DNA from: Planctomycetota bacterium
GTDB taxonomy: Bacteria; Planctomycetota; JAZDJP01
Assembly (NCBI GenBank): GCA_043803805.1
Contig: JAZDJP010000084.1
Span: 121,462 to 185,461 of the forward strand
Reading direction: 5' to 3'
DNA length: 64,000 nt
Below the pieces are notes generated by a model. It was not told where the DNA came from and did not search any database. It saw only the letters and a list, made by a program, of their open reading frames with translations. Below, in pieces: positions 5,309 through 46,474 of the stretch. A program made the translations under genes and the position numbers. Positions within the stretch are counted from its first letter, which is position 1, and each line of letters opens with the position of its first letter.

Positions 5309-5349
5309 GAGACGGCGGGGCGGTTTCGCGATCTCACGGAGATGATGCG

Positions 5350-6989: not shown

Positions 6990-6993
6990 CCGG

Positions 6994-11566: not shown

Positions 11567-11616
11567 GGAAACCAATTTTAACTGAAACCTTCGGCCGCGC
11601 CGTGTAAAATTCCGCC

Positions 11617-12663: not shown

Positions 12664-12764
12664 TGAACGCGCAATTGAATCGGACGTACAACCCGGGCAG
12701 GTATTGACCCGGGCCGTTTATCCGTTGCAGCCCCGCGCCGACCGTGGTATCATCCGCCGCCATC

Positions 12765-13238: not shown

Positions 13239-13271
13239 TACACGGGACATTTTTTCATCAGGGGGGATGTC

Positions 13272-13763
13272 ATGGCGAACAAGGCAAATCCGAAAATCGT
13301 GCCGCAGACGGGGATTGTCCGCGAGGTGGCCCCGCTTGTCGAACTCATGAACGCGAACCAGCTCACCGAGGTGGAGGTGGAGAGCGGCGACCTGAAGATC
13401 CGTCTCAAGAAGGGGGTGGACGCGCCTGCCTACACGGTCATGGCGGCCCCCGCCGCCGCGCCGGTTCATGCGCCCGCCGCCGCGCCGGCGGCCCCAATTG
13501 TCCCCGCGGACGATTCGGACAAATACAAGAAAATCGTTTCCCCGATGGTGGGCACGTTCTACCGGTGCCCCCGGCCCGACGCGCCGCCGTTCGTGGACGT
13601 GGGGAAGGTCATCAACAAGGAGACGGTGGTCTGCATCATCGAGGCCATGAAGGTCATGAACGAGATCAAGGCCGAGATGTCCGGCAAGATTCACAAGGTC
13701 CTTGTGGAAAACGGCCAGCCCGTCGAATTCGGTCAGGCGTTGTTCCTCGTCGAGCCGATGTAG
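13272..13763 (+). CDS. accB: Acetyl-CoA carboxylase biotin carboxyl carrier protein
   Basis: Ala/Pro-rich linker followed by the biotinyl domain with the EAMKVMNEI lysine motif. Follows aroQ as in the widespread aroQ-accB arrangement, but no accC follows. Confidence 0.85.
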   Translation: MANKANPKIVPQTGIVREVAPLVELMNANQLTEVEVESGDLKIRLKKGVDAPAYTVMAAPAAAPVHAPAAAPAAPIVPADDSDKYKKIVSPMVGTFYRCPRPDAPPFVDVGKVINKETVVCIIEAMKVMNEIKAEMSGKIHKVLVENGQPVEFGQALFLVEPM

Positions 13764-27000: not shown

Positions 27001-29695
27001 AGAGATCGTTGCGCTGATGCGGTGTCCTTTGCCTGAAGGGTTGGTGGATCGCGCAACACGATCGCGTCCGTCGGCAACATACGAAGTTGAGATACGTGCG
27101 GTCATTGAGGCAATTAATCTGTTACGCTCCACCTGTTCTGCCTCGACCTCCATGTTCCCTGAGGCGCAGTGTCCCTGGAAATCCTGGGGACAAGCACCGT
27201 TTGCTGTCGCGCGGGCATGGTGCGATGATCTTTGCGCGCACGCTGACGAGGCCAGCGATTGGGTGGAGTACCGGTCCGCAGTCGAAGATTTGAATAATGA
27301 GATCGGTGCGGAAATGGCTGATGCTCTACGAGCAGCCACGGACGACGGGGAAATGGTTCCCGATATCGTGCTTCGCCACGTGTATATTTCCTGGCTTGAA
27401 TACATCTACCAGGAAGTGCGTGAACTCCGATTCTCGCCGAAAGACTTGGAGGGCACCGTAAAAAAAGAGTTCAGAGAACTCGATGCGCGTCTCCCGCGAG
27501 CGGCGCGCGAACGCGTCCGGGCGAAATGTCTCGCGGCGTATCCCTCGGATCGATCGAACTCGAACGGCATGGGTGAACTCGGAGTGTTGGGCCATGAACT
27601 CTCGAAGCGAAAACGCCTGATGCCCGTTCGCAAGTTGGTGGCAAGGATTCCCAACTTGCTCCAACGGTTGAAACCCTGTTTTATGATGAGTCCATTGGCC
27701 GTGAGTCAGTACCTGCCGCGTGGCGTCACTGACTCCGACACCTTGGTCTTCGACGCGGTAATCTTCGACGAGGCTTCGCAGATCTTTCCGGAAGATGCGA
27801 TTCCCGCGATCGCGCGTGGTCGCCAGTGTATCGTCGTCGGCGACCAGCAACAACTTCCCCCTTCCAGTTTCTTCCGGAGCGAAGATGTAGTGGATGAAGA
27901 TGGCGAAGCGACGACGGACAATCGTTTGCTCGATGTCGAGAGCATCCTCGACGTTCTGGTCGGGATGCGCGGGGCTGGTGTGGACGATGTCCATTTGCAG
28001 GTGCATTACCGGAGTCAGCATGACGACCTGATTCGGTATTCGAACCACTACTTTTACGACGACCGACTGCTGACATTCCCCTCCGCTTTGGGCACTTGTA
28101 AAGGCTTGGGGATTCGATCCGTCTATTTACCAGAGGGACGTTTCGAAGCCGGTGGAAGCAGGACGAACCGGGTGGAGGCGGAACAGGTCGTTCGCATCGT
28201 ATTCGAGTTGATGGAAACGCAACCCCCGATCGAGAGCATCGGTGTCGTTGCGTTGTCGCGGCCGCAGGCGGACCTCATCCAGGAGTTGATCGATCAGTAT
28301 CGGTTGTCGGACCGGCGATTCGACGAACGGTTTTCCGATGAGATGCACGAACGTTTCTTCGTGAAGAACTTGGAGAACGTTCAGGGGGATGAACGAGATC
28401 ATGTTATCTTGAGCATTGGGTACGGTCCGACAACGGCCTCGGGCGCTGTGCCCAATCGGTTCGGTCCAATCAACGTTGAGGGTGGACATCGGCGTCTGAA
28501 CGTGGCTGTGAGCCGCGCTAGGAGAAGTATCACGGTTGTGCACTCGCTTCGCCCGGAAGACATTCACTCCGAGGTGGAGGGGGCCAGGTTGCTTCGCCGC
28601 TACCTTGAGTTCCTTAGAAGCGGCGAGGCGTCAATTGAAGGCGTTGTGAATTCATCACCCGGCGGTGAAGCCGAGAGCCCGTTCGAGGATGCCGTGGGTC
28701 GCGCGTTGGAGCGATTGGGATATCGCATCGCACGCCAAGTGGGATGCGCGAAGTACTCGATCGATATCGCGGTCAAATCCGAGGACGGGAGCGGGTTCGA
28801 CCTTGCGATCGAGTGCGATGGCGCCGCCTATCACAGATCACCGAGTGCGCGAGATCGTGACCGGTTGCGTCAGGAGATTCTTGAACGCATGGGATGGCAG
28901 GGGCGAATTCATCGTGTCTGGTCGACGGCATGGATTCGAAACCCGAAAGCAGAACTTGCTGCGATTGAACATGCCATACGTGAAGCGCGTTCCGCACCAC
29001 GCGGGGGGCATACGTCAGCAAGCCTTCGCTTTGAAGTGCCGCCGAAGACACAGACTGCGACGCGTCAGGAAGGACATATCACCCCCAATCCATCTTCCGC
29101 GATGCCAGCGATAGAACGCCCACTGCTCGCAACCTATGTGAAAGTGGATCTGGATTGCTTCGCTAACGTCACCGATTTGAGACAGGTGCCTTCGTCACGA
29201 GTTGCGGATATGATTGATGTTGTCGTGAAAGTGGAGGGTCCCGTCCACGTCGATATAGTAGTCGAACGCATTCGGCGCCACTATCGGTTCGGTCGTGCAG
29301 GACGGCTCGTTCGAGACGCGGTACTGGCGGGATTGAAGGTGGCGCTTCGACGCGGAACCGTTCTGTGGTTGCCTCTGCTGGTCTCCAACAAGCAAAGGAG
29401 TGACTTCCTCGTCGTGGCCGCGGATCTGGAGATTGTGCCCCGCGGCCCCTTGCAGGATGGGACAGTGCGAGATATTGACCATCTCTGTGATGATGAGATC
29501 GAGGTTGCCGTGGTGCGTGTCGTGCGTGCGATGGTTGGCGCGACGAAGAACGAGGTGGTCACAACAACAGCTCGCGCGTTAGGCTATGCTCGAATTAGCG
29601 ACCACATCGAAAAACGTATATGCAAGTCAGTCGACCGGCTAATTGAGACGCGGAAACTTGTCGAACGGGTAGGTTCCTTGGTGTTGTGTGATTGA
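24053..29695 (+). CDS. 1880-aa DUF4011 / SF1 (Upf1-like AAA_11+AAA_12) helicase / Vsr-DUF559-like endonuclease / DUF3320 protein; Hhe-like candidate antiphage defence protein
   Basis: GTG start with the GGAGG-containing stretch gacggagg 7 bp upstream. DUF4011 hallmark LLQLDRRNALLYF. Walker A LVIHGPPGTGKSQTIAN. Walker B/motif III VIFDEASQ...CIVVGDQQQLPP. Motif IV HYRSQ, motif V NVQGDERDHVILSIGYG, motif VI LNVAVSRAR. Nuclease block YSIDIAVKSEDGSGFDLAIECDGAAYHRSPSARDRDRLRQEILERMGWQGRIHRVWSTAW. DUF3320-like tail. G+C is lower than the flanks. Confidence 0.8.
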   Translation: MPVSNASRQQVVVEAVRQWQTRLLQLDRRNALLYFSMGRRGITLRNIEPNVLLERLATSRSGLAFTYAEQTRASGGDHFDIPAASDDAELEPQVRVRPGDLDTDLAPLELQKRLGALNRRSREWQEEQGLNVLFIALGFLRWVDEDQEPACSPILLVSCELKHESPRDPYALVGEDSDDAVVNPTLRHKLTTAANIILPEIGEETVAEYLAAVSRLIAGREGWSVETTIVVATFPFSKLAMWQDLDQMASTGVTHPLVCRLAGDADVPIEESESGAVAIPKDDIRLQGAKLDDLLDVRDQHAVVDADFSQLRAITLARSGKNLVIHGPPGTGKSQTIANIIATLIAEGRRVLFVSEKTAALDVVKRRLADVGLGAFCLDLHSDRGKKASVYAQLREARDQPLAADADVFPYERLLARRHELNTTVRALHEVRQPLGLSVFTVHGRVAAIREVPQVNVLVRDVATLDEDRLRRIQDAARRIARRILEFCDHHTSRWRALGAVAPSPRLADAIRGDLMAISSAIDSIVRVLARASAACGVDAPTTLVEAENLLRLLSHLMNAPGSVPAQWIESEGLGRARDSGDALRQELADRKRYLDTLSSSISGAPPGLRSLDWLDIAHAVAAEATRWARVAGSEWDTVLLANPRICATKWNDISTSLDAHLEASIHLQVMLGVTQPNDSRAAAESAVSVATRLLRIGKVPVTWNSLEATTGICSVVTAAHKLRDELVAMRRTLGSLFGPEIVECVDDKMLVRFRTDHQSFWRWLRPAYRHDYRMIRGCLKQPVKLSLDACVKAIEQSLAVRKLRSRWAETEHQLQVVLGDRFAGLESDWTGIESDLVAVADIYREFPAQTVAIRSILVDAPTLALLNDAIRAVKERATVLDTIWPEGLSHRDAHIPDMSSDARAFANTSGRIGDIVDALGPFVRPLVNLDGLIKLLKVCVQLQKLEEHAAAVFETRSREIGTLFSGWSTDFDIFNRTIAWTQEIVALMRCPLPEGLVDRATRSRPSATYEVEIRAVIEAINLLRSTCSASTSMFPEAQCPWKSWGQAPFAVARAWCDDLCAHADEASDWVEYRSAVEDLNNEIGAEMADALRAATDDGEMVPDIVLRHVYISWLEYIYQEVRELRFSPKDLEGTVKKEFRELDARLPRAARERVRAKCLAAYPSDRSNSNGMGELGVLGHELSKRKRLMPVRKLVARIPNLLQRLKPCFMMSPLAVSQYLPRGVTDSDTLVFDAVIFDEASQIFPEDAIPAIARGRQCIVVGDQQQLPPSSFFRSEDVVDEDGEATTDNRLLDVESILDVLVGMRGAGVDDVHLQVHYRSQHDDLIRYSNHYFYDDRLLTFPSALGTCKGLGIRSVYLPEGRFEAGGSRTNRVEAEQVVRIVFELMETQPPIESIGVVALSRPQADLIQELIDQYRLSDRRFDERFSDEMHERFFVKNLENVQGDERDHVILSIGYGPTTASGAVPNRFGPINVEGGHRRLNVAVSRARRSITVVHSLRPEDIHSEVEGARLLRRYLEFLRSGEASIEGVVNSSPGGEAESPFEDAVGRALERLGYRIARQVGCAKYSIDIAVKSEDGSGFDLAIECDGAAYHRSPSARDRDRLRQEILERMGWQGRIHRVWSTAWIRNPKAELAAIEHAIREARSAPRGGHTSASLRFEVPPKTQTATRQEGHITPNPSSAMPAIERPLLATYVKVDLDCFANVTDLRQVPSSRVADMIDVVVKVEGPVHVDIVVERIRRHYRFGRAGRLVRDAVLAGLKVALRRGTVLWLPLLVSNKQRSDFLVVAADLEIVPRGPLQDGTVRDIDHLCDDEIEVAVVRVVRAMVGATKNEVVTTTARALGYARISDHIEKRICKSVDRLIETRKLVERVGSLVLCD

Positions 29696-29729
29696 GTTCA
29701 TGGAAGTAAACGGGCTCAAATTGTAATTT

Positions 29730-29820
29730 GACGGAACGGAATCATGGCTTATCCCACCGTCGAACCGGATTGCATCCGGGGCCTCGCGCGCCGCGTGGCG
29801 GAAATCGCCGCGGAACCGCG
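29730..29820 (+). repeat. Direct repeat copy 1 of the URO-D-like gene leader plus first ~27 codons (~88% identical to 32358-32458)
   Basis: aacggaacggaatcATGGCTTATCCC...TGCATCCGGGGCCTCGCG(C/T)GCCGCGTGGCGGAAATCGCCGCGGAACCGCG is shared. Both copies encode MAYP...CIRGLA(R/C)RVAEIAAEPR. Confidence 0.7.
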
Positions 29821-29839
29821 CTCGATGGACGCTGGGGCG

Positions 29840-32173
29840 ATGAAGATGGGTCGGATTGCTTTCCGGGGCGCGTTGGCGCTGGCCTTCACGGTTTTTCTGG
29901 CCTTGCCCGCGCGCGCGGCCGAGCCGGACACGGCCGGCGACGCCGGCGGCTGGCGGCCGGTGGGCATCTCCGGGGGCGGCTCGATGTTCGGGCCGGCCAT
30001 CAGCCCGGTTGACCCCAGGCTCATGATCATCAATTGCGACATGAGCGGCGCCTACCGCTCGGCCGACGGCGGCCGGAACTGGCGGATGATCCACCACGCC
30101 CAGTTGGGCGGGAACACCTTCTGCCGCCCGGCGTTTCATCCCACGGAAGCCCGGACCGTCTTCGCCGCCTCCGGCTGGTCGGGAAATCTCAAGGTCAGTC
30201 GCGACGCCGGCGTGACGTGGGCGGACATCGGCAACCTCCCGGCCGGCCTCAAGGGCGAAATCGCCATTGACCCCGGGGAGCCCAAGATGATGCTCGCCGG
30301 CGTCAGGGATGAGGTCTGGCGCTCGGCCGACGGGGGCCTCACCTGGGCCAGGTGCGCCGGGCCCAAGGGCGCGGCGGCCGGCTTCCACTTCGACCAGACC
30401 AGCCCCTCCGGGCGGCGCCGGTGCTTCGCGGCCACCGCCGAGGGCGTCTGGCGCTCGGACGACGGCGGCGCGAACTGGGCGGAGAAGTCGGCGGGCCTGC
30501 CCTGGCGGGGGATGCGCAGTTTCGCGGGAGGGTCGAGCGCGGCCGGGAATGTCTGCGCGCTCTACGGTGCGGTGCCCAGCAGGGAGCAGGACGGCAAATT
30601 CGCCGGCGGCGTCTTCCGTTCGACCGACGGCGGCGAGATCTGGGAGTCGGCCATGGGCGAGGGGATCAACAAGGACGTCCGCGCCGCCGACCCGTGGGCC
30701 ATGGGCGGCATCGCCGAGTACCGCTGGGTGCTGGCCACGGACGCGAAGCCGCTCACGGTCTACGCGCTCAACACAAACACCGGCGTGAAGCCGCCGCACC
30801 ACGCCACGGTCTACCGCTCCGACGACGGCGGGCGGACCTGGCGCGCCACATTCACGCCCGACCAGCGCTTCGGGGGCCTCAACGTCGAGCTCGACTGGCG
30901 CACGGCCGGCGCCGGGCAGTTCTACCAGGAGGTCCCCTTCGGCGCGGCGGTCTGCCCGTCGGATCCCGACCGGGTGGTCTTCTGCGGCTCGATGGGATGC
31001 TACCTCACCGAGGACGGTGGAAAGAGCTGGCGGTCGGGCCACACCGCGCGCGCCGCCGGCGACGCCGGCAAGGGGCCGGACTCCCGCTGGCTCTGCAACG
31101 GTCTGGTGGTCACCTCGACGTGGCATTACTACGCCGATCCCTTCGAGCCGCGGAGGCGCTACATCGCCTACACCGACATCGGCTTCGCGCGCTCGACGGA
31201 CGCGGGCGCGAGCTGGATGTGGTGGGGGCCGGGCCGCTGGGCGCCCTGGCAGAACACCTGCTACGAGCTCGCCTTCGATCCGGAGACCAGGGGCCGCGTC
31301 TGGGGCGCCTTCTCGAACGTCCACGACATCCCCAACGACAACGTCATCTCCGGCCGGCACAAGGCGGACCGCCCGGGAGGCGTCTGCTTGAGCGCCGATT
31401 TCGGCACGATCTGGAAACCCTGCGGAACGGGGCAGCCCGCCGCGCCGGCCACCGCGGTGGTCCTCGACCCCGGGAGCCGCGCCGGCGCGCGGACGCTCTA
31501 CGCGGCCTTCTTCGACCAGGGCGTATACAAGTCGGTGGACGACGGCGCGACCTGGACGAAGGCCGGCAAGGGGCTGGGCGCCCCCGGGAACATGCGCGTT
31601 TGCCGGCTGCATCGGCACCCCGACGGGACGCTCTTCGCGCTGGTCACCGCCAAGCGCGAGGGCAAGCGCTTCATCCCGGAGGGGCCGGGGCTCTACCGCT
31701 CGACGGACGGCGCGGCGATCTGGGAGCCGGCGGGCGCCTCGCGGCCGCTCCTCTGGCCCAAGGACTTCGCCGTCAACCCGCGCGACAGCCGGACCATCTA
31801 CGTGGCCGCGGCCGACGCGGGGGCGGAGAAGCAGGGCGGGCTCTACCGCACCTCTGACGGGGGAAAAACCTGGACGCTCCTGGCCCGCAAGGGGCCGGAG
31901 CACTTCGGCGTGGCGCTCCATCCCCGCCGGCCGGGCTGGATCTACATGACTCTCTGCGAGGGCGCGCCGGGATCGGGCCTGTGGCTCAGCCGCGACGACG
32001 GCGCCAGCTGGGCGCCCTTCGATGATCTGCCCTTCAGGAACATCCAGAGGGTGGAGTTCGTCCCGGGCGAGGAGTCCGTCATCTACGTGACCACCTTCGG
32101 CGGCAGCGTCTGGCGCGGGCCGGAGGAGCCGCGCGGGGGCGGAACCGTGGGGGGTGTGAACGGTGAATTGTAA
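29840..32173 (+). CDS. Secreted BNR/Asp-box repeat protein (sialidase/VPS10-like beta-propeller fold)
   Basis: Signal peptide MKMGRIAFRGALALAFTVFLALPARAAEP, then about eleven SxDxGxTW-type Asp-box repeats (SRDAGVTW, SADGGLTW, SDDGGANW, STDGGEIW, SDDGGRTW, TEDGGKSW...). The track ORF 29744..32173 adds a 32-aa N-terminal extension that is a duplicated leader of the downstream gene. Confidence 0.65.
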   Translation: MKMGRIAFRGALALAFTVFLALPARAAEPDTAGDAGGWRPVGISGGGSMFGPAISPVDPRLMIINCDMSGAYRSADGGRNWRMIHHAQLGGNTFCRPAFHPTEARTVFAASGWSGNLKVSRDAGVTWADIGNLPAGLKGEIAIDPGEPKMMLAGVRDEVWRSADGGLTWARCAGPKGAAAGFHFDQTSPSGRRRCFAATAEGVWRSDDGGANWAEKSAGLPWRGMRSFAGGSSAAGNVCALYGAVPSREQDGKFAGGVFRSTDGGEIWESAMGEGINKDVRAADPWAMGGIAEYRWVLATDAKPLTVYALNTNTGVKPPHHATVYRSDDGGRTWRATFTPDQRFGGLNVELDWRTAGAGQFYQEVPFGAAVCPSDPDRVVFCGSMGCYLTEDGGKSWRSGHTARAAGDAGKGPDSRWLCNGLVVTSTWHYYADPFEPRRRYIAYTDIGFARSTDAGASWMWWGPGRWAPWQNTCYELAFDPETRGRVWGAFSNVHDIPNDNVISGRHKADRPGGVCLSADFGTIWKPCGTGQPAAPATAVVLDPGSRAGARTLYAAFFDQGVYKSVDDGATWTKAGKGLGAPGNMRVCRLHRHPDGTLFALVTAKREGKRFIPEGPGLYRSTDGAAIWEPAGASRPLLWPKDFAVNPRDSRTIYVAAADAGAEKQGGLYRTSDGGKTWTLLARKGPEHFGVALHPRRPGWIYMTLCEGAPGSGLWLSRDDGASWAPFDDLPFRNIQRVEFVPGEESVIYVTTFGGSVWRGPEEPRGGGTVGGVNGEL

Positions 32174-32210
32174 TTTAGAGCAATTCACGATTAACGGAAT
32201 CCTCAGTGCC

Positions 32211-32458: not shown

Positions 32459-33595
32459 ATTCTCGCCCGCTGGCGCGACGTGAGCGCCCTTCGCAAACCC
32501 GACCGCGCCCCCGTCTGGTGCAAACCCGTCGGCTGCTGGTCCGAAATCCTTCCGACGTCGTCGCTTGTGTGCCGGGATCCCGGGTTGCGGGATATCGAGT
32601 TGGAACTTCGGAAAATCGTGTTCAAGCGCGAGGTGGACGATGATACGCCGGTACCTCCATACATCGAGGCGCCGGCGGTGTTTCAGGTCACGCCCAGGAA
32701 CATTTACGGCCTTGAGATCAATCACACGCCGTCCGATTCGCCCGGGGGCGCCTGGGCGTACGATCCGCCGCTGAAAAGCGAAGCGGATTTCGATCGTCTC
32801 GTCCTGCCGGAATACCATTACGACGCGGCCGCGACGCGGGCCAACCGCGACCGGATGCGGGAGATTCTCGGGGGCGTCCTTCCTGTGAAAGTGGCCGTGA
32901 ACGTGTCCTGGGAAGGGACGCTGGGGACCGCCGCGGCCAATCTGCGGGGGCTCGAGACGATGATGCTCGACACCCTGGATCATCCGGATTGGCTGCATCG
33001 GCTCATGGCGGTCGTCCGGGACGCCGCGCTACGCCATCTGGATTGCGCCGAAGCGACGGGGGTGCTGCGCACGAACGCGTACGACCCGATGATGGGGAGC
33101 GGCCCGGTCGGCGCCATTCCGCCTGGAGGCCGGCCGACGTGCGCCAACCTCTGGTGCATGGCCAATTCGCAGGAGTTTGATCAGGTGTCGCCCGCCGCGT
33201 GGCAGGAGTTCTGCCTCGAGTACCAGAAGCCGATTCTCCGGCGCTTTGGATTCACGGGATATGGGTGCTGTGAGAATCTGACGCGAAAACTGGATGGCGT
33301 GCTCACCATTCCCAACCTTCGCATCGTGACCTGCGGCGCCTGGACGAATCTGGACACGGTCATCGAAAAAACGAACCGCCGGTATTGCATCATGTGGCGG
33401 CAAAAGGCGTCCGACGTGGTTTTTGCCAGGCGGGAGGATGAGATCCGAGGGCCCCTGGAGGACGGCGCCCGGCGTCTGCGGGGATGTTATTACCAGATCG
33501 TCCTTCGCGAACTTCAGACGATGGCCGGCCATTCCGACCGGCTCCACGTCTGGACGCGGTTGGCGAAGGAGGCGGCGGAGAAATACGCATCGTGA
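32372..33595 (+). CDS. Uroporphyrinogen decarboxylase (URO-D)-like family protein
   Basis: 407-aa cytoplasmic protein whose overall pattern resembles the URO-D/MtaA-like family common in PVC genomes. Its first ~27 codons are duplicated upstream of the BNR gene. Confidence 0.35.
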   Translation: MAYPAGELECIRGLACRVAEIAAEPRMTAILARWRDVSALRKPDRAPVWCKPVGCWSEILPTSSLVCRDPGLRDIELELRKIVFKREVDDDTPVPPYIEAPAVFQVTPRNIYGLEINHTPSDSPGGAWAYDPPLKSEADFDRLVLPEYHYDAAATRANRDRMREILGGVLPVKVAVNVSWEGTLGTAAANLRGLETMMLDTLDHPDWLHRLMAVVRDAALRHLDCAEATGVLRTNAYDPMMGSGPVGAIPPGGRPTCANLWCMANSQEFDQVSPAAWQEFCLEYQKPILRRFGFTGYGCCENLTRKLDGVLTIPNLRIVTCGAWTNLDTVIEKTNRRYCIMWRQKASDVVFARREDEIRGPLEDGARRLRGCYYQIVLRELQTMAGHSDRLHVWTRLAKEAAEKYAS

Positions 33596-33615
33596 AAATT
33601 TTGTGAAAAAAGGGG

Positions 33616-33644
33616 TTGAAATTCCTGCTTGCGTGTGCTATTAT
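33616..33644 (+). promoter_or_regulatory. Near-consensus sigma70-type promoter (TTGAAA-17 bp-TATTAT)
   Basis: ttgaaa (33616-33621), a 17-bp spacer, then tattat (33639-33644), about 150 nt upstream of the ATG at 33802. The TTG of the -35 box is what the ORF track used as a spurious start for ORF 33616..36477. Confidence 0.4.
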
Positions 33645-33801
33645 GCGACTAAGTGGGTGTGCGTGGCGGAAACGGAATGCCGGACGAGGATGGGAGGTTC
33701 GTGTGGATGTCTTGTATTCTCCGGTGACCGATGTACGATTCCCGATGGTTCGCCGGCCAACGGTCAACGGAAACGCATTTCGTGAGAGGATGCCTTTTCC
33801 C

Positions 33802-36477
33802 ATGAAGAAAGAAACGCGCATCACCGGCATCGTTCTGGCGGCCCTGTATTACGCCGTCATGTTCCCGAGCCCCGCCCATGCCGTGGTGCCGGTCCTTGTG
33901 GGACCTCTCCAGGCGTTGATGGCGCTGCTCCCGGCCATTCTCGCGGCGCTGGGGGGGATGCTCCTGGCCGTGTTCAAGCCGTCCGCCATGAAAAAGTTCC
34001 TTCAGCTCCTCTGGGCCCAGAAACTCCAGGTCCTGGCCACGGTGGCCGTCATTGCCGGGTTGGTATACGGGTGCCAGGCGCTCTTCCCCGGCTGGAGCGG
34101 GCCGGTGAAGGAACTGGAGAAGGCCGATCGCGAATCACCCATGTTCCGCGGCGGGCCGGAACGGCGGGGCGTGGCCGACAACATGCCCGGGCCCGTCGAG
34201 AGCAGCATCAACTGGGCCTTCACCAAGGACGTCCGGACGTTTTATTCCACCCCCTCCGTGGTCGGGAACCGGGTATACGCCACTTCCGCGGACAAGGGGC
34301 CGTTCCGGGACAGCGGGGCGGTGTACTGCCTGGACGCGGATACGGGAAACGTCGTGTGGAAGGTGTCTCCGAAGGGGTTCCGGGCCACGTTCTCCTCCCC
34401 GGCGGTATCGGGTAAATATCTGGTCTGCGGGGAGGGGCTTCATTTCACCCGGGATGCCCGCGTCTTCTGCCTGGACATCAGCGATGAGAAGAATGTCAAG
34501 ATCCTTTGGGATTACCGCACCAAGAGTCATGTGGAATCTTCCCCCTGCATCGCGGACGGGCGCGTTTACGTCGGGGCCGGAGATGACGGATATTATTGCT
34601 TCGACCTCGCTCCCGGGCCGGACGGCCAGGCGAAGGTTCTCTGGCATACGGATACGGCCAAGGTTCCCGACGCCGAGACCTGTCCGGCGGTGGCGGGCGG
34701 AAAGGTGTATGTGGGGCTCGGGGTGGGGGGCAACGGCGTGGCGTGTCTGGACGCGGCCACCGGCGCCGTGGCGTGGAAGGCGGCGACGCCCTATCCCGTG
34801 TTTGGCCCGCCGACCGTGGTGGGCGGAAAGGTCATCGTGGGGATGGGGCTGGCGAATTTCATCGAATCCGAGGAGCAGGTCATCCTCAAGGAGACGGAGA
34901 AGTTGAAGAAGAAGGGACTGCCCGAGGCCGAACTGAAGGCGGCCCTGAAGGAGTTCAAGGTCACCGGAGAAGTGTGGGCGCTGGACGCGGCCACGGGGAA
35001 TCCGGTCTGGAAATTCACGGCCCCCCGGAGCGTCCTGGGCGCGGTGGCGGCGGCGAATGACAAGTTGTTCTTCGGTTGTAATGACGGGTCGTTCTTCCGG
35101 CTGAACATGGATGGGAAGAAGGAACTCGCGTGGAACGCCCGCGCGCCCGTCCTCACGTGTCCGGCCGTCACGGATGACAACGTATATATCGTGACGACGA
35201 CGGGGAAACTCTACGGGTTGTCCGCCGACACGTTCGAACTGGTCCTGGAACACACGGTTGGCACGACGGGGTTGTTCCTGAGTTCGCCCACGGTCGGACG
35301 GAGCCACGTGTATGTCGGTTCCAGCGATTTCGGCCTGCAGTGCCTGGGGCTTCCCAGCGGCGTCCGGAAGGAGCCGGTGTGGGCCGGGCACATGGGCGGC
35401 GCGGGGGGCGCGGGATGGATTGATGGAAGTCCCCTCCCGGCCAGTGGCGTTCTGGCCGGCCGGTACCCCGAGGCCCCGGAAGGCGAAGAGACGGCTCCGG
35501 CCGCGGTCATCTCCGCGCCGTCGGCCGCCTCCAGGGACATGCTCTTCGTTCCCGTGGCGGACGGCGCCCGGAAGGGTCTCGCCGGCCTTGCCACCGGGAA
35601 AAAACTCGCCGAGAAGTGGTTCGTGGCGACGCCCAACGGCGTTTCGATATCCCCGGCGGCCGGGGGCGACCGCGTATACGTCACGGACGGCGGGAACGGC
35701 GACGGCAATCGGAATCTCCAGTGTCTGGATGCCGCGACCGGGAACGTCAAATGGAAGATTCCGGTGGCTCCGGGGGTGTCCGGCGCTTTCCTCCTGGCGG
35801 AGGACGTCGTTCTGGTGCAGGACAAGCCGGGCGTCCTGGTCGCGGTGGATGTCTCGGGGCAGGCGGCCTGGCGGCGGACCGTCGGGGAGATGATCGGCAC
35901 CGCGGCCGTCGCGGAGACGGTCATCGCGGTGGCGGTGAAGGATCCGCCGTCTCTGGCGCTTCTGGATCGCGTGACGGGCCGCGAACTCTGGCGCGTTCCG
36001 GTGGAGGCGGGTGTGACGACGGGGCCGGTCGTCCGCCCGGATAATGTCATTTGTGTCGGGACGAAGGCCGGCGTCGAGGCGCGGAATCCCGCCGACGGCG
36101 CGAAGGCCTGGACGGCCGATGTCGGGGCGGTGTCCGGGACGCTGGCGACCGCGCGGAACTTCATCGCCGGCGCCTGCCCGGGAACGTCGGACATCGCGAT
36201 CCTCGACGGAAACGGGAATATCCTCACCCGTCTCGCGGAGGCCCTGCCGGGGATGCCGCCGGTGATGGCCCGCGACGCCCTCCTGTATTTTTCCACAACG
36301 AAGGAGATCCGGCGGGTGGAGCTGGAAAAATGGAATCCTCTGATCTGGACGAAGACGGACTTCCTCGGCGAGGTCACGTCGCCGGCGGTCCTGGTGAATT
36401 CGCAGGTGTATTTCGGCGTCCGCCGTCAGGAGGATGGGAAAATCGGTCTCGTGGTCGAAAAGGGGAAAAAGCAATGA
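33802..36477 (+). CDS. Membrane-anchored protein with multiple PQQ-like beta-propeller repeats (BamB-like)
   Basis: MKKETRITGIVLAALYYAVMFPSPAHA plus a second hydrophobic segment, followed by many repeats of the G..VY.....G.....LDA.TG...W type characteristic of PQQ beta-propellers. About 890 aa. Confidence 0.6.
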   Translation: MKKETRITGIVLAALYYAVMFPSPAHAVVPVLVGPLQALMALLPAILAALGGMLLAVFKPSAMKKFLQLLWAQKLQVLATVAVIAGLVYGCQALFPGWSGPVKELEKADRESPMFRGGPERRGVADNMPGPVESSINWAFTKDVRTFYSTPSVVGNRVYATSADKGPFRDSGAVYCLDADTGNVVWKVSPKGFRATFSSPAVSGKYLVCGEGLHFTRDARVFCLDISDEKNVKILWDYRTKSHVESSPCIADGRVYVGAGDDGYYCFDLAPGPDGQAKVLWHTDTAKVPDAETCPAVAGGKVYVGLGVGGNGVACLDAATGAVAWKAATPYPVFGPPTVVGGKVIVGMGLANFIESEEQVILKETEKLKKKGLPEAELKAALKEFKVTGEVWALDAATGNPVWKFTAPRSVLGAVAAANDKLFFGCNDGSFFRLNMDGKKELAWNARAPVLTCPAVTDDNVYIVTTTGKLYGLSADTFELVLEHTVGTTGLFLSSPTVGRSHVYVGSSDFGLQCLGLPSGVRKEPVWAGHMGGAGGAGWIDGSPLPASGVLAGRYPEAPEGEETAPAAVISAPSAASRDMLFVPVADGARKGLAGLATGKKLAEKWFVATPNGVSISPAAGGDRVYVTDGGNGDGNRNLQCLDAATGNVKWKIPVAPGVSGAFLLAEDVVLVQDKPGVLVAVDVSGQAAWRRTVGEMIGTAAVAETVIAVAVKDPPSLALLDRVTGRELWRVPVEAGVTTGPVVRPDNVICVGTKAGVEARNPADGAKAWTADVGAVSGTLATARNFIAGACPGTSDIAILDGNGNILTRLAEALPGMPPVMARDALLYFSTTKEIRRVELEKWNPLIWTKTDFLGEVTSPAVLVNSQVYFGVRRQEDGKIGLVVEKGKKQ

Positions 36478-39290
36478 AGCGCTGGATTTATTTTTTCGGG
36501 GACGGCGCGCCGGAGATCGATTCCGGGCGGAAGGATATCCTGGGCGGGAAGGGCGCGAGCCTCGTCGAGATGAGCCACGCGGGCCTTCCGGTGCCGCCCG
36601 GGTTCATCATCTCCACCGAGGCCTGCCAGGCTTATTTCGAGGGCGGGAATCTCTGGCCGGAGGGGCTTGAGGCGGAGGTGAGGACGAATCTCGCGCGCCT
36701 GGAGAAGGTTACGGGCCAGCGCTTTGGGAGCGGGAAACAGCCGCTCTTTGTGTCCGTGCGTTCCGGCGCCGCGGTGTCCATGCCGGGCATGATGGACACG
36801 ATTCTCAATTGCGGCGTCTATCCCCGGATATGGTGCCCGGGGGCCGGCACGTGCGCCACCCACCCCTGCGCGATCCTCAACTGCGGCATCTATCCCAAGC
36901 TTGTGGAGGAGGTCGGCGACACGCCGATTTTCTGGAGGGTCTATCTCCAGTTCGTGGCGCAATTCGCAAAAACCGTTCACGAGATTCCCTCGGAATCGTT
37001 CATGCGACACGGAAGCGCGAAACCGGAGGATTTTTCGTTCGCCTCCGCCCAGCGCGCCCTTCGTCTCTACCGGGACAAGACGCGGTCGGATTTCCCCGAG
37101 GAGCCGTGGGCGGCGCTTGCCGCGTGCATCAACGCCGTCTTCAATTCCTGGAACAACGAACGGGCCATCGCCTACCGCAAGCGGAACGACATCCGGAAAC
37201 TCTTCGGAACGGCGGTCACGGTGCAGTCCATGTTCCCGTCGCACCTTTCGGGGATTCTTTTCACGCAGGATCCGAACAACCTGGCCGCCAACCGCATGAT
37301 CATCGAGGCCTCCTACGGCCTTGGGGAGGCGGTCGTTTCCGGCGATGTCACGCCGGACCGTTTTGTCGTGCCGCGCGACAATCCGGCCGTTTACGAGACG
37401 GTGCTGGGGAACAAAAACGCGCTCGTCCGGGCCTTTGGCGACGAGGACCCCGTGGATCCGGCGGTCCCGTGCCTTTCGAAGGAACAGGTTGCCCAGCTCT
37501 GCGAGGCCGGACTCAAAATCGAAAAACATTTCGGCCGGCCGCAGGACATCGAGTGGGGATTCGCGAGGGGGAAATTCGCGCTTCTCCAGTGCCGGTCCAT
37601 ACGCGGCCTGGATATTCTGGAGGACGTGGAGCGTGGACGGAAGGCGGAGATCGAACGCCTGACGGCTCTGGCGAAGGACCGCGCCCGCGTCTGGGTGACT
37701 CACAACCTCGGCGAGACCCTGCGGGTGCCCACGCCGCTCACCTGGGACATTGTGAAACACTTCATGAGCGGGGACGGCGGTTTCGGCCTCATGTACCGGC
37801 AGTTGGGGTACCTCCCATCCAGGGAAGTGTGTCGGGACGGGTTCCTCGATCTCGTGAACGGGCGCATTTACGCCGATCCGGAACGCCTTTCCCAGTTGTT
37901 CTGGGAGGGGATGCCGATGGCATACGACCTCGATGCGGTGCTCAAGGACAAAAATCTGCTCGATCAGGCGCCGTCGCGGTTTGACGCCGAACGGGCCGAC
38001 GGAAAGTTCCTGGCCAAACTGCCCAAGACGGTGATCGCCATGCTCCGGAGTTCCCGGATCACCAAGCGGATGCGGAGGAACGCGAAGGAATATTTTGAGA
38101 ATGAGGTTCTCCCCACGTATCTGGCCTACGTGAAAGCGAAGCGCGGGCAGGACCTGACGAAGAGGACCACCGCCGAAGTCGTGGCGGAACTTCGGGAACG
38201 GACGCGGAAGGCGCTGGATGAATTCGGCCCGGAGTCCCTCAAGCCCGGCTTTTTCGCCGGGGTGGCGTACGGCGCCGTCGAGGGGACGCTCATCGAGATC
38301 CTGGGCCCGGAGGAGGGTGGGGCTCTCGCGCGGACGCTCACGATGGGGCTCGATGGCGACACCACCGTTGAACAGAATCTGATCCTTTACCGGGTGGCGA
38401 AGGGGGACGCGACGATTTCCGAATTTCTGGAGCGGTTCGGCCACCGCGCGGTGGGGGAGATGGAACTTGCCGAATCGCGCTGGCGCGAGGATTCCACGTA
38501 CATCGAGCAGATGGTGGCCACCTTCAAGACCATCACGGGACGTTCCCCGCACGACATCCATGAGGAGAACTCCGTCAAGCGCGCCGTCGCCGAAAAATCG
38601 CTCCGTGAAGCGCTGACCCGGGGCGGGGGGGCGGCGCTTCTCGAGGATATTCAGGCGAATCTCAAGGACGCCCAGGCGCTCCTTCCGTATCGCGAAAGCG
38701 GCAAGCATTATCTCATGATGGGATACGAGGTCATCCGTCTCGCCATCCTGGAGTTGTCGCGGCGGTGGGACCTCGGCCGGGACGTTTTCTTCCTGCGCCT
38801 CGACGAGCTGGACCGTTACGAGGCCGAGAAGGCCCGTTTGTCGGGCGAGATCGCGGCGCGCAAGCTCCGGTGGCAGTCCGCCCAGCGTCTCGAGATGCCC
38901 GACGTCATCGACTCGCGAAATCTGGAAAAACTCGGTCTCCCCCAGGAGTACGCCTCGGCGACGGAATTCAAGGGGGATGCCGTGGCCTCCGGTGTCGGCG
39001 TCGGCCCGGCGGCCATCGTCTTCGACCCGCGGGAGGCGGGGGACATCGGGACGGGATATATTCTGGTTTGTCCCTCGACCGACCCCGGATGGACGGCCCT
39101 GTTCATCAACGCGCGGGGGTTGATTGTGGAACGCGGCGGGATCCTTTCCCATGGCGCCATCGTCGCCCGCGACTTCGGCATTCCCGCGGTGGTCCTGCCG
39201 GGGGCCACGAGCCGCATTCCGAAGAAGGCGCAGATCCGGGTGGATGGGAACCGCGGGAGTGTCACGGTGCTTGACGTGAAGCAATCCTAG
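36474..39290 (+). CDS. PEP-utilizing phosphotransferase (PPDK_N ATP-grasp plus C-terminal phosphohistidine swivel domain; PEP synthase / rifampicin-phosphotransferase-like architecture)
   Basis: Start ATG overlaps the upstream stop (ATGA). N-terminus GGKGASLVEMSHAGLPVPPGFIISTEA matches the PPDK N-terminal motif. C-terminus VLVCPSTDPGWTALFINARGLIVERGGILSHGAIVARDFGIPAVV matches the PEP-utilizers mobile domain with the catalytic His. The track ORF 36051..39290 is over-extended. Confidence 0.7.
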   Translation: MKRWIYFFGDGAPEIDSGRKDILGGKGASLVEMSHAGLPVPPGFIISTEACQAYFEGGNLWPEGLEAEVRTNLARLEKVTGQRFGSGKQPLFVSVRSGAAVSMPGMMDTILNCGVYPRIWCPGAGTCATHPCAILNCGIYPKLVEEVGDTPIFWRVYLQFVAQFAKTVHEIPSESFMRHGSAKPEDFSFASAQRALRLYRDKTRSDFPEEPWAALAACINAVFNSWNNERAIAYRKRNDIRKLFGTAVTVQSMFPSHLSGILFTQDPNNLAANRMIIEASYGLGEAVVSGDVTPDRFVVPRDNPAVYETVLGNKNALVRAFGDEDPVDPAVPCLSKEQVAQLCEAGLKIEKHFGRPQDIEWGFARGKFALLQCRSIRGLDILEDVERGRKAEIERLTALAKDRARVWVTHNLGETLRVPTPLTWDIVKHFMSGDGGFGLMYRQLGYLPSREVCRDGFLDLVNGRIYADPERLSQLFWEGMPMAYDLDAVLKDKNLLDQAPSRFDAERADGKFLAKLPKTVIAMLRSSRITKRMRRNAKEYFENEVLPTYLAYVKAKRGQDLTKRTTAEVVAELRERTRKALDEFGPESLKPGFFAGVAYGAVEGTLIEILGPEEGGALARTLTMGLDGDTTVEQNLILYRVAKGDATISEFLERFGHRAVGEMELAESRWREDSTYIEQMVATFKTITGRSPHDIHEENSVKRAVAEKSLREALTRGGGAALLEDIQANLKDAQALLPYRESGKHYLMMGYEVIRLAILELSRRWDLGRDVFFLRLDELDRYEAEKARLSGEIAARKLRWQSAQRLEMPDVIDSRNLEKLGLPQEYASATEFKGDAVASGVGVGPAAIVFDPREAGDIGTGYILVCPSTDPGWTALFINARGLIVERGGILSHGAIVARDFGIPAVVLPGATSRIPKKAQIRVDGNRGSVTVLDVKQS

Positions 39291-39302
39291 GAGAGAGCGA
39301 AC

Positions 39303-40169
39303 ATGGAAGTCCTGAACTGGCTGAATCAGATGGTCCTGGATCTGATGGATCCCGTCCTCGGGTGGATGCTGGCGCTGCACCGGGACGTCATCATCATCGC
39401 CATCGGGGTGGTGACGGGAGCGATCCTGGTCGCGGTTCGGTTGTTTTCCACGAATCAGGATCTTCTCAAGCGGGTCTTCGAGGACAAGAAGCGTCTCGGC
39501 GCGCTCATCAAGGAAGCCAAGGCCGGGAAGGACAAGGCCGCCCTTCAGCGCCACCGGAATGTGAATGGCTCGATCGCCATGAAAGCCATGATGCAGGAGG
39601 GCTGGCCGCTTCTGGCGTCACTCCTTCCGATCGCGCTTCTGGGGACGTGGGCGTTCCAACGGCTCGAGTTCCATCCGCCCGGGGCGGGGGAGCTCGTGGA
39701 GGTCGTTGCGTACTACCCGGTTTCCGCCGTGGAGACCGTGATTCACATCGTTCCGCAGGAAGGGCTGGTTCCCGAAGGCGGCTGGGTCCGGCAACTGAAG
39801 GAAGTCACGGATCAAGGGCAGGTGTATGCCGAGGCCACCTGGAAAATCAAGGCCGATCCGCGGCCCAAGCCCTACGTTTTGGAATTCCGTCACAAGGCCG
39901 GGACGGTGTCGAACACGGTGCTCGTGGGGCAGAGGACGTACGAGCCGGCGATCACGGATTGCGGGAAGGAACGGATCCTCGAAGTCCGGATGAAACCCGT
40001 GAAGATGTTCGGATTTATCCCGGCCCTTCCTCCCCCTCCGCCGCTCCTGCCGGTCGGATTCTTTCAATATTGGCCGGCGGTGCTTGTCCTTCCGCCCTGG
40101 CTGGTGGGGTATTTTATCGTCGCCATACCTTCCGTAAGCCTTTTCAAAAAGGTGTTCGGCATTTATTGA
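39303..40169 (+). CDS. Hypothetical membrane protein (3 TM segments, Lys-rich coiled region, PPPPP tract)
   Basis: 288 aa. Starts 12 bp after the PEP-utilizing gene, which suggests operon membership. No confident family assignment. Confidence 0.45.
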   Translation: MEVLNWLNQMVLDLMDPVLGWMLALHRDVIIIAIGVVTGAILVAVRLFSTNQDLLKRVFEDKKRLGALIKEAKAGKDKAALQRHRNVNGSIAMKAMMQEGWPLLASLLPIALLGTWAFQRLEFHPPGAGELVEVVAYYPVSAVETVIHIVPQEGLVPEGGWVRQLKEVTDQGQVYAEATWKIKADPRPKPYVLEFRHKAGTVSNTVLVGQRTYEPAITDCGKERILEVRMKPVKMFGFIPALPPPPPLLPVGFFQYWPAVLVLPPWLVGYFIVAIPSVSLFKKVFGIY

Positions 40170-45063: not shown

Positions 45064-46461
45064 ATGAACTGCGGCATTGCGGAAAAACATCTTTCTGATC
45101 TGGCGTTGGGCATCCTTTCCGGGGAGACGCGATCCGGTGTGGAGGCCCACGTGGCGGAGTGTGTTATTTGCCAGGTCGAGTTTGACCGATTGCGGGAAAT
45201 CCTGCGGGAGGCGGAGCGCGTGGCGGAACGGGAGGTCCCGGCGGATTTCCGGGATCGTCTCGGCGTCGCTGTCGCGGGGGAGATCGCCCGGGTCCGGGGC
45301 TCTCACCATCGAAACCGGATATTCCGGCGCTGGATCGCCGTGGCGGCGATGATTCTTCTTCTGGTCGGGGCGGGGATGATGCATCTCCGACGGACAACCC
45401 CGCCGGCCCCTGCCGCATCCTCGGAATCGGTCATCGCGCATCCTTTGGAAGCGGTTTGGCGGGCCCGGGCGGAAGGATACGCGGCCGGGCGGTTTTCCCA
45501 TGTTCCGGTTGTTGCCGGGGAACGGGTGTTCGGTGTCCGCATGGCCGGCGGGCGGGAACGCATTTTCGCCCGGGATGCCCGGACCGGCGGGGAATTGTGG
45601 ATTTCCGGAGAGTCTTCCGGGGGCTTTCTTTCCGCCGACGGGGAACGGGTATACGCCATGCGCCGGGAGGCCGGACGGGAGATTCTGACGGCGTATCGCG
45701 GCGGGGATGGCGGACGCCTGTGGGAGGGGGAGGTGGGATCCGTTACGGGCGGGACATGGCATCCCGTTGTCTGCGGAAACGTCGTCGTGGTCGGAAATGG
45801 GGGCATTCTGGCCGCTTACGACGCCGTCACGGGGGCGGAACTGTGGAGGACGGACGGCGCCGGCCCGCGCTCGCGCCCGGCGCAGACGTGCGGGGCGCTG
45901 AATTACGTGACGGCCGGCGGTGTTCTCCGGTCGGTGGAATCACGGACCGGCGCGGTGCGCTGGGAAACGCCGATTCCCGCGGATGACGCCGGCCGGCGGC
46001 AATATGCCGTGACCGCATCCGGGGGGCGTGTGTTCGTTCTGCCGGTGGACGGCGGCACGGGCGACCGGCGCCTTGCGGCCTTCGACGGCGTCACGGGACG
46101 ATTCCTCTGGGAACGGAGAACCGTCGCCGGAATCCATCTGGCGGCCACGGGGGATTTCGTGTTCGTGAAGGGGATGGATCTCGAGGCATTCCGCGCCGCC
46201 GATGGCGCCTCGCTCTGGCGAAAATCCTTCGGGAATTGCGCCCCCGTCACCTGCGGCCGGGATGTGATTTACGCCGTCCGGACCTCGGGACGCGATTCCG
46301 AGGTGGCCGCGGTGGACCCCCGGTCCGGGGGCATCCGATGGACCCAGCAGGTGTCGAAGACCTGCGCCGGAATTCTCCTTGCGGACAATCACGCGTTTCT
46401 TGAAGGTTTGGATGGAATTCTGTATGCTTTCGCTTTCCGTCCCAGAGGCGGGATCATTTAA
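45064..46461 (+). CDS. Anti-sigma factor (zf-HC2 N-terminus, one TM) with a periplasmic PQQ-like beta-propeller domain
   Basis: HVAECVICQ zinc-finger anti-sigma motif, a TM segment WIAVAAMILLLVGAGMM, then repeated ...G.LW/RW... propeller blades. Directly downstream of the ECF sigma gene. Confidence 0.65.
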   Translation: MNCGIAEKHLSDLALGILSGETRSGVEAHVAECVICQVEFDRLREILREAERVAEREVPADFRDRLGVAVAGEIARVRGSHHRNRIFRRWIAVAAMILLLVGAGMMHLRRTTPPAPAASSESVIAHPLEAVWRARAEGYAAGRFSHVPVVAGERVFGVRMAGGRERIFARDARTGGELWISGESSGGFLSADGERVYAMRREAGREILTAYRGGDGGRLWEGEVGSVTGGTWHPVVCGNVVVVGNGGILAAYDAVTGAELWRTDGAGPRSRPAQTCGALNYVTAGGVLRSVESRTGAVRWETPIPADDAGRRQYAVTASGGRVFVLPVDGGTGDRRLAAFDGVTGRFLWERRTVAGIHLAATGDFVFVKGMDLEAFRAADGASLWRKSFGNCAPVTCGRDVIYAVRTSGRDSEVAAVDPRSGGIRWTQQVSKTCAGILLADNHAFLEGLDGILYAFAFRPRGGII

Positions 46462-46474
46462 AAGGGAGAGAGAA

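Follow-up and report, generated by a model that had tools for sequence, protein, structure and literature searches.

Three closely spaced genes, here called P1, P2 and P3, lie on the forward strand of a 64,000-nucleotide stretch (hereafter the window) of contig JAZDJP010000084.1 (185,672 bp), which belongs to a Planctomycetota metagenome-assembled genome (MAG) and in which the products of the trio carry V1809_ tags at NCBI. They encode, in order, a membrane-anchored protein with two tandem beta-propellers, a histidine-swivel dikinase of the rifampicin phosphotransferase (RPH) type, and a membrane protein of the DUF106 type, with the coordinates of the genes and their parts collected in Table 1. 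The start codon of P2 (ATG, 36474-36476) overlaps the stop codon of P1 (TGA, 36475-36477) as ATGA, with a Shine-Dalgarno-like AAGGGG placed 8 nt 5' of the start, and the stop codon of P2 (TAG, 39288-39290) is separated from the ATG of P3 by a 12 nt spacer, with AGGAGA overlapping that stop codon. P3 itself stops at 40167-40169, and the convergent neighbouring gene ends at 40180. The trio forms a coupled unit that is probably co-translated.

The same arrangement is found well beyond the window. A pattern scan for the P3 family over 185,579 species-representative genomes returned 31 loci, all of them in MAGs, with a metagenome scan adding 71 further P3 loci. Most of the 31 carry the labels Thermoguttaceae, Pirellulales, Planctomycetia, Phycisphaerae, Brocadiaceae, Fuerstiella, Lentisphaerae/Victivallales and Verrucomicrobiota, and the few labelled Anaerolineales, Anaerolineaceae or Nealsonbacteria nevertheless hold the same trio. 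Among the 85 loci that remain once redundancy in P3 DNA is removed, which come from Planctomycetota, Verrucomicrobiota and Lentisphaerota, P2 lies immediately 5' of P3 in 73 and just 3' of it in two (order P1-P3-P2), the remaining 10 being too short to judge or without P2; P1 lies immediately 5' of P2 in 46 of the 48 informative loci. The P1/P2 junctions of the first 31 loci mostly measure -25 to +1 nt, often with the same ATGA overlap, and the P2/P3 junctions mostly -8 to +4 nt. Because gene order and tight junctions recur in dozens of unrelated contigs, the arrangement goes beyond chance. An earlier note on this DNA, which had described three co-directional, coupled genes and had set conservation of their neighbourhood beforehand as the test, is thereby confirmed on both counts, by the ATGA overlap and 12-bp gap in the window and by P2 adjoining P3 in 75 of the 85 loci with P1 preceding P2 as given above.

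Where the order is rearranged, linkage is kept, with P1-P3-P2 at loci L012 and L080 and P2-P3-A-P1 at L053, while L061 has the order P1-P2-P3-P1', its two P1 copies (4587-7220 and 10994-13603) being 75% identical. Two loci from the same MAG, ELA715 (L008 and L011), apparently represent two modules, with P3 66% and P2 80% identical between them, so that the module can be paralogous within one genome unless the bin is mixed. At L095, which is a divergent locus, a gene for a PIN-domain (VapC-like) toxin (6954-7346) stands between P2 and P3, with RecD2 ahead of P2 and P1 missing. The flanks of the trio in the window (a 407-aa upstream gene and a BNR gene) are not conserved at the other loci. Two other families recur beside the module: a secreted FG-GAP propeller protein of ~640 aa, found in 17 of the 35 loci that extend over 12 kb or more and usually directly 5' of P1, and a GH123-like hydrolase, found in 14 of these 35.

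The three proteins differ in how strongly they are conserved against their homologs, with P2 mostly at 52-60% identity, P1 at 38-50% and P3 at 35-47%. P2 is predicted to be cytoplasmic, with neither a signal peptide nor a transmembrane (TM) segment in its sequence, and contains GGKGASLVEM, PVPPGF and GGILSHGAIVARDFGIP. Pfam assigns it PPDK_N (PF01326, 7e-60) and, at the C-terminus, PEP-utilizers (PF00391, 1.6e-19, residues 861-928), with precomputed Pfam annotation adding Rph_4th (PF27448) between the two, and no match by Pfam to the phosphoenolpyruvate (PEP)/pyruvate TIM barrel (PEP-utilizers_C, PF02896). The ATP-grasp domain aligns with residues 4-366 of the pyruvate phosphate dikinase (PPDK) structure 2x0s, and residues K26, R96, D358, E360, Q372, R374 and H893 are invariant across 25 P2 homologs. 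Conserved motifs of the central domain include HNLxETL, PTPLTWD, MSGxGGFG and LPYRExGKHYLMMGYE, and the invariant residues of the swivel domain include C866, P867, S868, T869, D870, P871, W873 and E886, together with G888, G889, L891, S892 and H893, which form the motif GG-x-LSH. A search with the single P2 sequence finds PPDK as the best PDB match, by way of the ATP-grasp domain, and Listeria RPH at residues 646-934. With a profile of the 25-sequence family, the Listeria RPH structures come first in the PDB (E = 1e-88), with profile positions 615-912 aligning to residues ~561-867 of 5HV1/5FBS, and the match spans the swivel together with part of the central domain. Structures 5HV1 and 5FBT are identified as RPH (PMC12167813).

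P2 shares its three-part architecture with RPH (Listeria 5FBS, 5FBT, 5HV1) and with the small-molecule dikinases PigC/RedH/HapC, HpeHI, CreHI and PpsAB, and has the GG-x-x-S-H motif and the ATP-site residues in common with RPH. In contrast to these enzymes, however, its central domain carries strongly conserved motifs of its own, and its surroundings hold no resistance, pigment or aromatic-catabolism context. The NCBIfam models it matches (a PRK06241-type "PEP synthase", RPH, PPDK, RedH/PigC and PpsA) all score far under their cutoffs. Judged from its sequence, P2 is an intact member of the RPH-type small-molecule dikinase family and neither PpsA nor PPDK; since every curated equivalog cutoff is missed by a protein that fits the RPH architecture, it is placed in a new clade.

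Names in the NCBI and JGI databases ("pyruvate, water dikinase" and "PEP/pyruvate-binding domain-containing protein"), together with the strong similarity of the ATP-grasp domain to PPDK, would place P2 in central carbon metabolism as a true PEP synthase or PPDK. Whilst the ATP-grasp and phosphohistidine swivel domains are indeed homologous to those of PpsA and PPDK, the domain order of P2 is different, with the His domain C-terminal rather than central, the PEP/pyruvate-binding TIM barrel is lacking, and the scores reach about a quarter of the equivalog cutoffs (192.8 against 739.75 bits for TIGR01418, and 242.2 against 843.45 for TIGR01828), such that this identity was rejected and is hardly credible.

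P2 might alternatively act as an antibiotic or xenobiotic phosphotransferase (RPH), or as a catabolic phenol-type kinase such as HpeHI or PpsAB, with P1 and P3 as mere operon companions. RPH is the closest solved relative of P2, some P2 homologs are labelled "rifampicin phosphotransferase" by JGI, and antibiotics and phenolics are substrates of the family (PMC12167813). However, P2 scores 251.6 bits against a cutoff of 999 with the rifamycin-inactivating phosphotransferase model NF041857, and 160.9 against 1700 with NF000283, and was rejected as such an enzyme. Furthermore, it stands beside P3 in 75 loci across the phyla of the Planctomycetes-Verrucomicrobia-Chlamydiae (PVC) group, and in the 31 loci with measured junctions the genes as a rule overlap or nearly abut, a pattern that does not resemble that of a mobile resistance gene; no conserved catabolic or resistance genes lie nearby. 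We regard this explanation as very unlikely. The higher conservation of P2 extends to its central domain, which argues for one conserved substrate rather than diversifying xenobiotics.

One feature of P2 is private to the window. The 24-aa in-frame insertion listed in Table 1 is missing from all 24 aligned homologs, and is bounded by an imperfect 24-nt direct repeat (36801-36824/36873-36896, with three mismatches) with 48 nt of new sequence; Tandem Repeats Finder found no repeat in it. It may reflect a duplication-type event or an assembly artefact.

P3 has no Pfam match at the default threshold, with its relationships emerging from family-level comparison. Its homologs are named "DUF106 family" by JGI, some of them carrying PF01956, and the PF01956 model (EMC3_TMCO1) matches 27 of 31 P3 relatives at E<=0.1 (best 1.8e-9), the window's own P3 reaching E = 0.012 and 15.8 bits, under the gathering cutoff of 27.1. 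The sole PDB match of the P3 family profile at E<=10 is MJ0480 (5C8J, E = 2.8e-4), a YidC-like DUF106 protein of archaea, with the significant stretch running from the N-terminal helix through TM1 and the hairpin to TM2; TM3 aligns weakly with MJ0480 residues 173-197 and is not significant alone (i-E 1.9e+03). Alignment of P3 to MJ0480 by hhalign gave E = 2e-4 at a probability of 46%, with no signal by hhalign to human EMC3, human GET1 or B. subtilis SpoIIIJ. In the Oxa1-superfamily fold, three helices form a hydrophilic groove that is exposed to lipid, and a helical hairpin of basic character lies on the cytoplasmic side. In the AlphaFold2 (AF2) model of P3 (predicted local distance difference test score, pLDDT, 90.5), TM1 follows an N-terminal helix and is joined to TM2 by a long helical hairpin, and a beta domain separates TM2 from TM3, with helices at residues 27-49, 52-74, 78-121 and 265-285 and strands within 131-229; a three-TM core with a predicted cytoplasmic helical hairpin between TM1 and TM2 is thus present in the model. 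Residues R46, Q52, D53, L54, L55, D61, E99, P102, W116 and R120 are invariant in the TM1-TM2 region.

The order of N-terminal helix, TM1, basic hairpin, TM2 and TM3 is the same in MJ0480/Ylp1, EMC3, TMCO1 and GET1, the sequence signal of P3 being to MJ0480 and PF01956 and its structural match to TMCO1. A Foldseek search with P3 gave nothing significant, with the beta domain finding weak immunoglobulin (Ig)-like matches at E >= 0.03. P3 is probably a divergent bacterial protein of the Oxa1 superfamily's DUF106 branch, tied to archaeal Ylp1 by a sequence signal that is faint but specific, and its novel insertion is predicted to lie in the periplasm. In contrast to its DUF106 relatives, P3 is paired with a dikinase and carries a ~110-aa Ig-like beta-sandwich between TM2 and TM3, where MJ0480 has just a short unaligned linker between the matched stretches. 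The DUF106 group (Ylp1/EMC3/TMCO1) has been described as archaeal and eukaryotic (PMC5868721; 10.1101/2020.12.20.422553), whereas the hosts of P3 are bacteria of the PVC group. Among 1.84 billion clusters at 50% identity, the P3 family numbers 279, 604 and 907 representatives at E<=1e-30, E<=1e-10 and E<=1e-3 respectively.

P1 begins with a signal-peptide-like segment that is missing in many of its homologs, which start directly with the TM hairpin. In the hairpin region P60, W71 and K74 are invariant, and V28, P30, G34, P35, Q37, L39, L43, P44 and L70 nearly so, with the helices running from residues 33 to 57 and 60 to 94 in the AF2 model. By the positive-inside rule, the basic loop is predicted to be cytoplasmic and the propellers periplasmic, and the invariant residues of the hairpin and loop suggest a specific contact. 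The AF2 model (pLDDT 85.6) contains two eight-bladed propellers, the first with a conserved helical insert at residues 357-383, and Pfam matches PQQ_2 (E = 1e-53, best stretch residues 677-811) along with related propeller models. The propellers are BamB/YxaL-like, with BamB-like propellers at the top of the structural matches and dehydrogenases ranking under the BamB/YxaL type. P1 nevertheless differs from the eight-bladed propellers of the BamB, YxaL and Rv3035 type in being tandem and in its anchor, which is a two-TM hairpin and not a lipid.

Two named functions were tried for P1 and rejected: BamB itself (136.5 against a cutoff of 285.2 for TIGR03300, and 100.8 against 423 for NF008351, the P1 propellers being in tandem on a TM hairpin), and a PQQ-dependent dehydrogenase (59 against 480 for TIGR03075, and 21.6 against 833 for TIGR03074). 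The C-terminal sensor propeller of the Ser/Thr kinase AfsK (NF053615) matches P1 at 3e-20, under the AfsK cutoff. At L033/L034 (3931-7251), P1 is longer (1106 aa) with a C-terminal Golvesin_C, and genes for Peptidase_M14 and CBM9 proteins follow the module.

The nature of P3 raises the prospect of a dedicated membrane-protein biogenesis machine, in which P3 would be the insertase, the P1 hairpin its intramembrane partner, the propellers a scaffold or holdase, and P2 a regulator or energiser. By analogy, the P1 hairpin would correspond to EMC6, GET2 or Elp1, the propellers to BamB or EMC1, and P2 to Get3 docking on the Get1 coiled coil. Several observations are consistent with such a machine: P3 has an Oxa1-superfamily fold and is nearest to archaeal Ylp1, the P1 hairpin in homologs without a signal peptide has a short N-out tail and hence a YidC-type topology, BamB-like propellers lead the structural matches of P1, and characterised relatives of P3 are all insertases, those of the DUF106 type using partner TM proteins (PMC5868721; 10.1101/2020.12.20.422553). 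However, a His-swivel dikinase occurs in no known insertase, P2 retains an RPH-type central substrate domain that is better conserved than P3, and the presence of at least one MAG apparently with two modules, and of one contig with two P1 genes, suggests a specialised rather than a housekeeping role. We therefore consider a biogenesis machine unlikely.

In the ER membrane protein complex (EMC) of eukaryotes, EMC1, a membrane-anchored protein with a PQQ-like propeller on the non-cytoplasmic side, is partnered by the DUF106-type EMC3. The pairing of P1 with P3 is alike, but the resemblance is one of analogy only: the 60 best structural matches of P1 do not include EMC1, EMC1-specific Pfam matches are marginal, the anchor of P1 is N-terminal, P3 is nearer to Ylp1 than to EMC3, and EMC has no dikinase.

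Alternatively, the trio could be a transmembrane sensor, in which the P1 propellers bind a ligand and switch P2 through the TM hairpin and P3, with the phospho-product of P2 as the output, the propellers being modelled by analogy on the PQQ, NHL and WD40 sensor domains of AfsK-, PknD- and PkwA-type kinases. The match of the P1 propeller to that of AfsK, the invariant and predicted cytoplasmic loop of P1, and a co-translation that fits a stoichiometric complex all agree with this. We nonetheless find it quite improbable, with no conserved regulator or output gene nearby, a signalling role for an Oxa1-type protein left unexplained, and a P2-P3 link that is tighter than that of P1 with P2 and persists where P1 is missing.

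Taking the three proteins together, a membrane-associated phosphotransfer or small-molecule-modification module, as proposed in the earlier note, remains the best reading, because the trio is coupled, its neighbourhood is conserved and P2 is of the RPH type. That note had been right to set P2 apart from the central PEP synthases, as the missing TIM barrel, the TIGR01418 score and the RPH profile match bear out, and right also that P1 is a membrane-anchored PQQ beta-propeller, with the conserved two-TM hairpin now added and the likeness being to BamB and YxaL. Its "small membrane protein" is a membrane protein, as claimed, but had been left without a family, and as a protein of the DUF106/EMC3-TMCO1 type it stands out as the unit's most unusual component.

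The form of this reading that we tentatively favour, at somewhat less than an even chance, is that of a three-gene envelope module specific to PVC bacteria that forms a membrane-tethered small-molecule or lipid dikinase complex. We infer from the above a physical complex of P1, P2 and P3, a membrane-resident substrate, and coupling to transbilayer movement. The RPH relatives are small-molecule dikinases that act on hydroxylated hydrophobic compounds, with kinases of the family suggested to trap diffusing substrates (PMC12167813), and YidC is reported to work as a lipid scramblase as well (PMC11997395). It is this combination of RPH chemistry on hydrophobic hydroxyls, substrate trapping and YidC scramblase activity that makes the proposed dikinase complex coherent. 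In such a complex, P2 would transfer the beta-phosphate of ATP onto His893 and then to the hydroxyl of a second substrate held in the central domain, yielding AMP, Pi and a phospho-product. The hairpin of P3 and the conserved basic loop of P1 would hold P2 at the membrane, where it would phosphorylate one conserved, amphiphilic, membrane-resident substrate, which may be a lipid, polyprenol, glycolipid or aglycone. The polar head of this substrate would be exposed, or moved across the bilayer, by way of the lipid-facing hydrophilic groove of P3, and the periplasmic propellers of P1 would bind or process the same molecule outside, perhaps helped by the secreted FG-GAP and GH123-like proteins. 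Movement could run inward, with phosphorylation trapping the molecule taken up, or outward, with an intermediate being exported in phosphorylated form.

A farther-reaching proposal, which we hold to be rather doubtful, is that PVC bacteria possess a membrane machine not recognised before, in which the DUF106 protein is the obligate partner of a His-swivel dikinase and a tandem-propeller protein, with substrate movement or insertion coupled to phosphoryl transfer from ATP. The substrate moved by such a phosphoryl-coupled machine would be a lipid, a glycolipid or a polypeptide segment, passing through an insertase-type groove.

Several points weigh against the dikinase complex. To our knowledge, the Oxa1-superfamily proteins that have been characterised are all primarily protein insertases and not small-molecule handlers, and the RPH-family enzymes characterised to date are soluble and need no membrane partner. 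The trio also has exceptions, with P3 alone at L001/L035, P1 and P3 without P2 at L041/L043, and P2 and P3 without P1 at L006 and L095, and no informative substitute gene was seen at the partner-lacking loci L001, L041 and L095. Additionally, homologs of the FG-GAP and GH123-like proteins are absent from the 64-kb window, and secreted proteins of these kinds are common in Planctomycetes anyway.

Each part of the trio comes from a known family, and the fixed, PVC-wide combination has no counterpart that we could find. We know of no characterised RPH relative reported to be encoded, as P2 almost always is, beside a DUF106-type membrane protein together with a propeller protein, and of no precedent for a dikinase coupled to an Oxa1-family protein. 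A search of the accessible literature for DUF106 or EMC3 with Planctomycetes found no relevant paper, and no published description of a dikinase/DUF106/propeller trio was found.

Upstream of P1, a sigma70-like promoter candidate sits in the 206-nt gap that follows an unrelated upstream gene with its stop at 33595. Promoters of PVC bacteria are poorly defined. The TTGAAA-17-TATTAT pattern cited in the earlier note is present, with 10 of 12 matches, but a 9-kb scan turns up two such sites where shuffled sequence predicts 1.4, and it is therefore plausible as a promoter by its position alone. The span given in the same note begins at 33616; this position is not a gene start but lies at the -35 hexamer, where the P1 open frame also has its first in-frame TTG. 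The start is ATG 33802, with an alternative ATG at 33790. The suggestion of a regulatory RNA in the leader did not hold, with an Rfam search of 33300-34000 at E<=1 giving no match and the leader folding no better than shuffled sequence (minimum free energy -49.1 kcal/mol against a dinucleotide-shuffle mean of -52.6, z = +0.86), and a structured regulatory RNA was rejected.

Table 1. Features of the P1-P2-P3 locus (window coordinates).
Feature	Position	Strand	Remarks
Sigma70-like promoter candidate	33616-33644	+	TTGAAA-17-TATTAT, TG extension, 10/12 matches
Putative 5' leader, ~150 nt	33645-33801	+	
P1, 891-aa membrane-anchored protein, two tandem beta-propellers	33802-36477	+	
P1 aa 1-27, signal-peptide-like segment ending AHA	33802-33882	+	N-termini of 40 homologs compared
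P1 aa 28-95, conserved two-TM hairpin with basic loop FKPSAMKKFLQLLWAQK	33883-34086	+	
P1 propeller 1, aa ~115-520	34144-35361	+	AF2 secondary structure, invariant columns
P1 propeller 2, aa ~545-891	35434-36474	+	AF2 model
P2, 938-aa RPH-type His-swivel dikinase	36474-39290	+	
P2 ATP-grasp nucleotide-binding domain, aa 1-380	36474-37613	+	
P2 24-aa in-frame insertion ILNCGVYPRIWCPGAGTCATHPCA	36801-36872	+	After MPGMMDT motif of ATP-grasp domain
P2 central domain, aa 381-830, RPH-type	37614-38963	+	Presumed substrate-binding
P2 phosphohistidine swivel domain, aa 831-938	38964-39290	+	Catalytic His893 codon 39150-39152
P3, 288-aa DUF106 (EMC3/TMCO1/Ylp1)-type Oxa1-superfamily membrane protein	39303-40169	+	
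P3 TM1 aa 27-49, basic hairpin aa 52-100, TM2 aa 101-121	39381-39665	+	Hairpin predicted cytoplasmic
P3 beta-sandwich insertion, aa ~125-235, between TM2 and TM3	39675-40007	+	Predicted periplasmic
P3 TM3, aa 265-285	40095-40157	+	Invariant W266, Y270

The convergent gene that follows P3 (40180-42432, - strand) encodes a secreted calcineurin-like, purple-acid-phosphatase-like metallophosphoesterase with CBM9. In two distant loci, L072 (2689-3699) and L074 (11300-12310), a same-strand homolog is the next gene after P3, the family recurring in three loci only; a periplasmic phosphatase beside a kinase module could be meaningful. Further along the window, 45064-47860 (+) carries a gene that joins a zf-HC2 (anti-sigma-like) N-terminus to a PQQ_2 propeller, with the result that PQQ-like propellers are used twice in the window; an overlapping gene for an Alginate_exp-type outer-membrane porin comes next.

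On the other side of the trio, the BNR/Sortilin-type gene at 29744-32173 (+) encodes an F510_1955-like glycosylhydrolase and has 72% G+C against ~62% around it, with a full-length antisense open reading frame (29639-32188) that is probably a high-GC shadow. Ahead of it lies a gene for a 1880-aa helicase-nuclease (24053-29695, +) with DUF4011, AAA_11, AAA_12, an MTES_1575 restriction-endonuclease-like domain and DUF3320, which scores 1222 bits with PDC-S37 and also matches Hhe, both of them candidate defence models of PADLOC; PADLOC gave no defence match for P1, P2 or P3. Further upstream, a 3163-aa RHS-repeat protein (13823-23314, +) with N-terminal Ig-like domains and a C-terminal Tle1-like phospholipase effector is polymorphic-toxin-like.

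The characterised members of the RPH family act on antibiotics, pigments and phenolics (PMC12167813), and a P2 clade fixed beside membrane proteins points to a conserved membrane substrate and widens the biology of this family. As a consequence for annotation, thousands of entries of the P2 clade named "PEP synthase" or "pyruvate, water dikinase" are misnamed. P3 appears to represent a sizeable bacterial DUF106 subfamily (279 clusters at 50% identity and E<=1e-30), with a new, predicted periplasmic domain and fixed partners, and offers a bacterial setting in which to study an archaeal-type fold, with bearing on the spread of the Oxa1 superfamily. The module as a whole marks an uncharacterised envelope function across the PVC group, lying in many lineages beside secreted glycan-related proteins. 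If the farther-reaching proposal is true, a phosphoryl-coupled machine would bring the Oxa1 superfamily a new energy-coupling principle and the RPH family a new, non-soluble role, with the corollary that the DUF106-type "archaeal YidC" would not be confined to archaea and eukaryotes.

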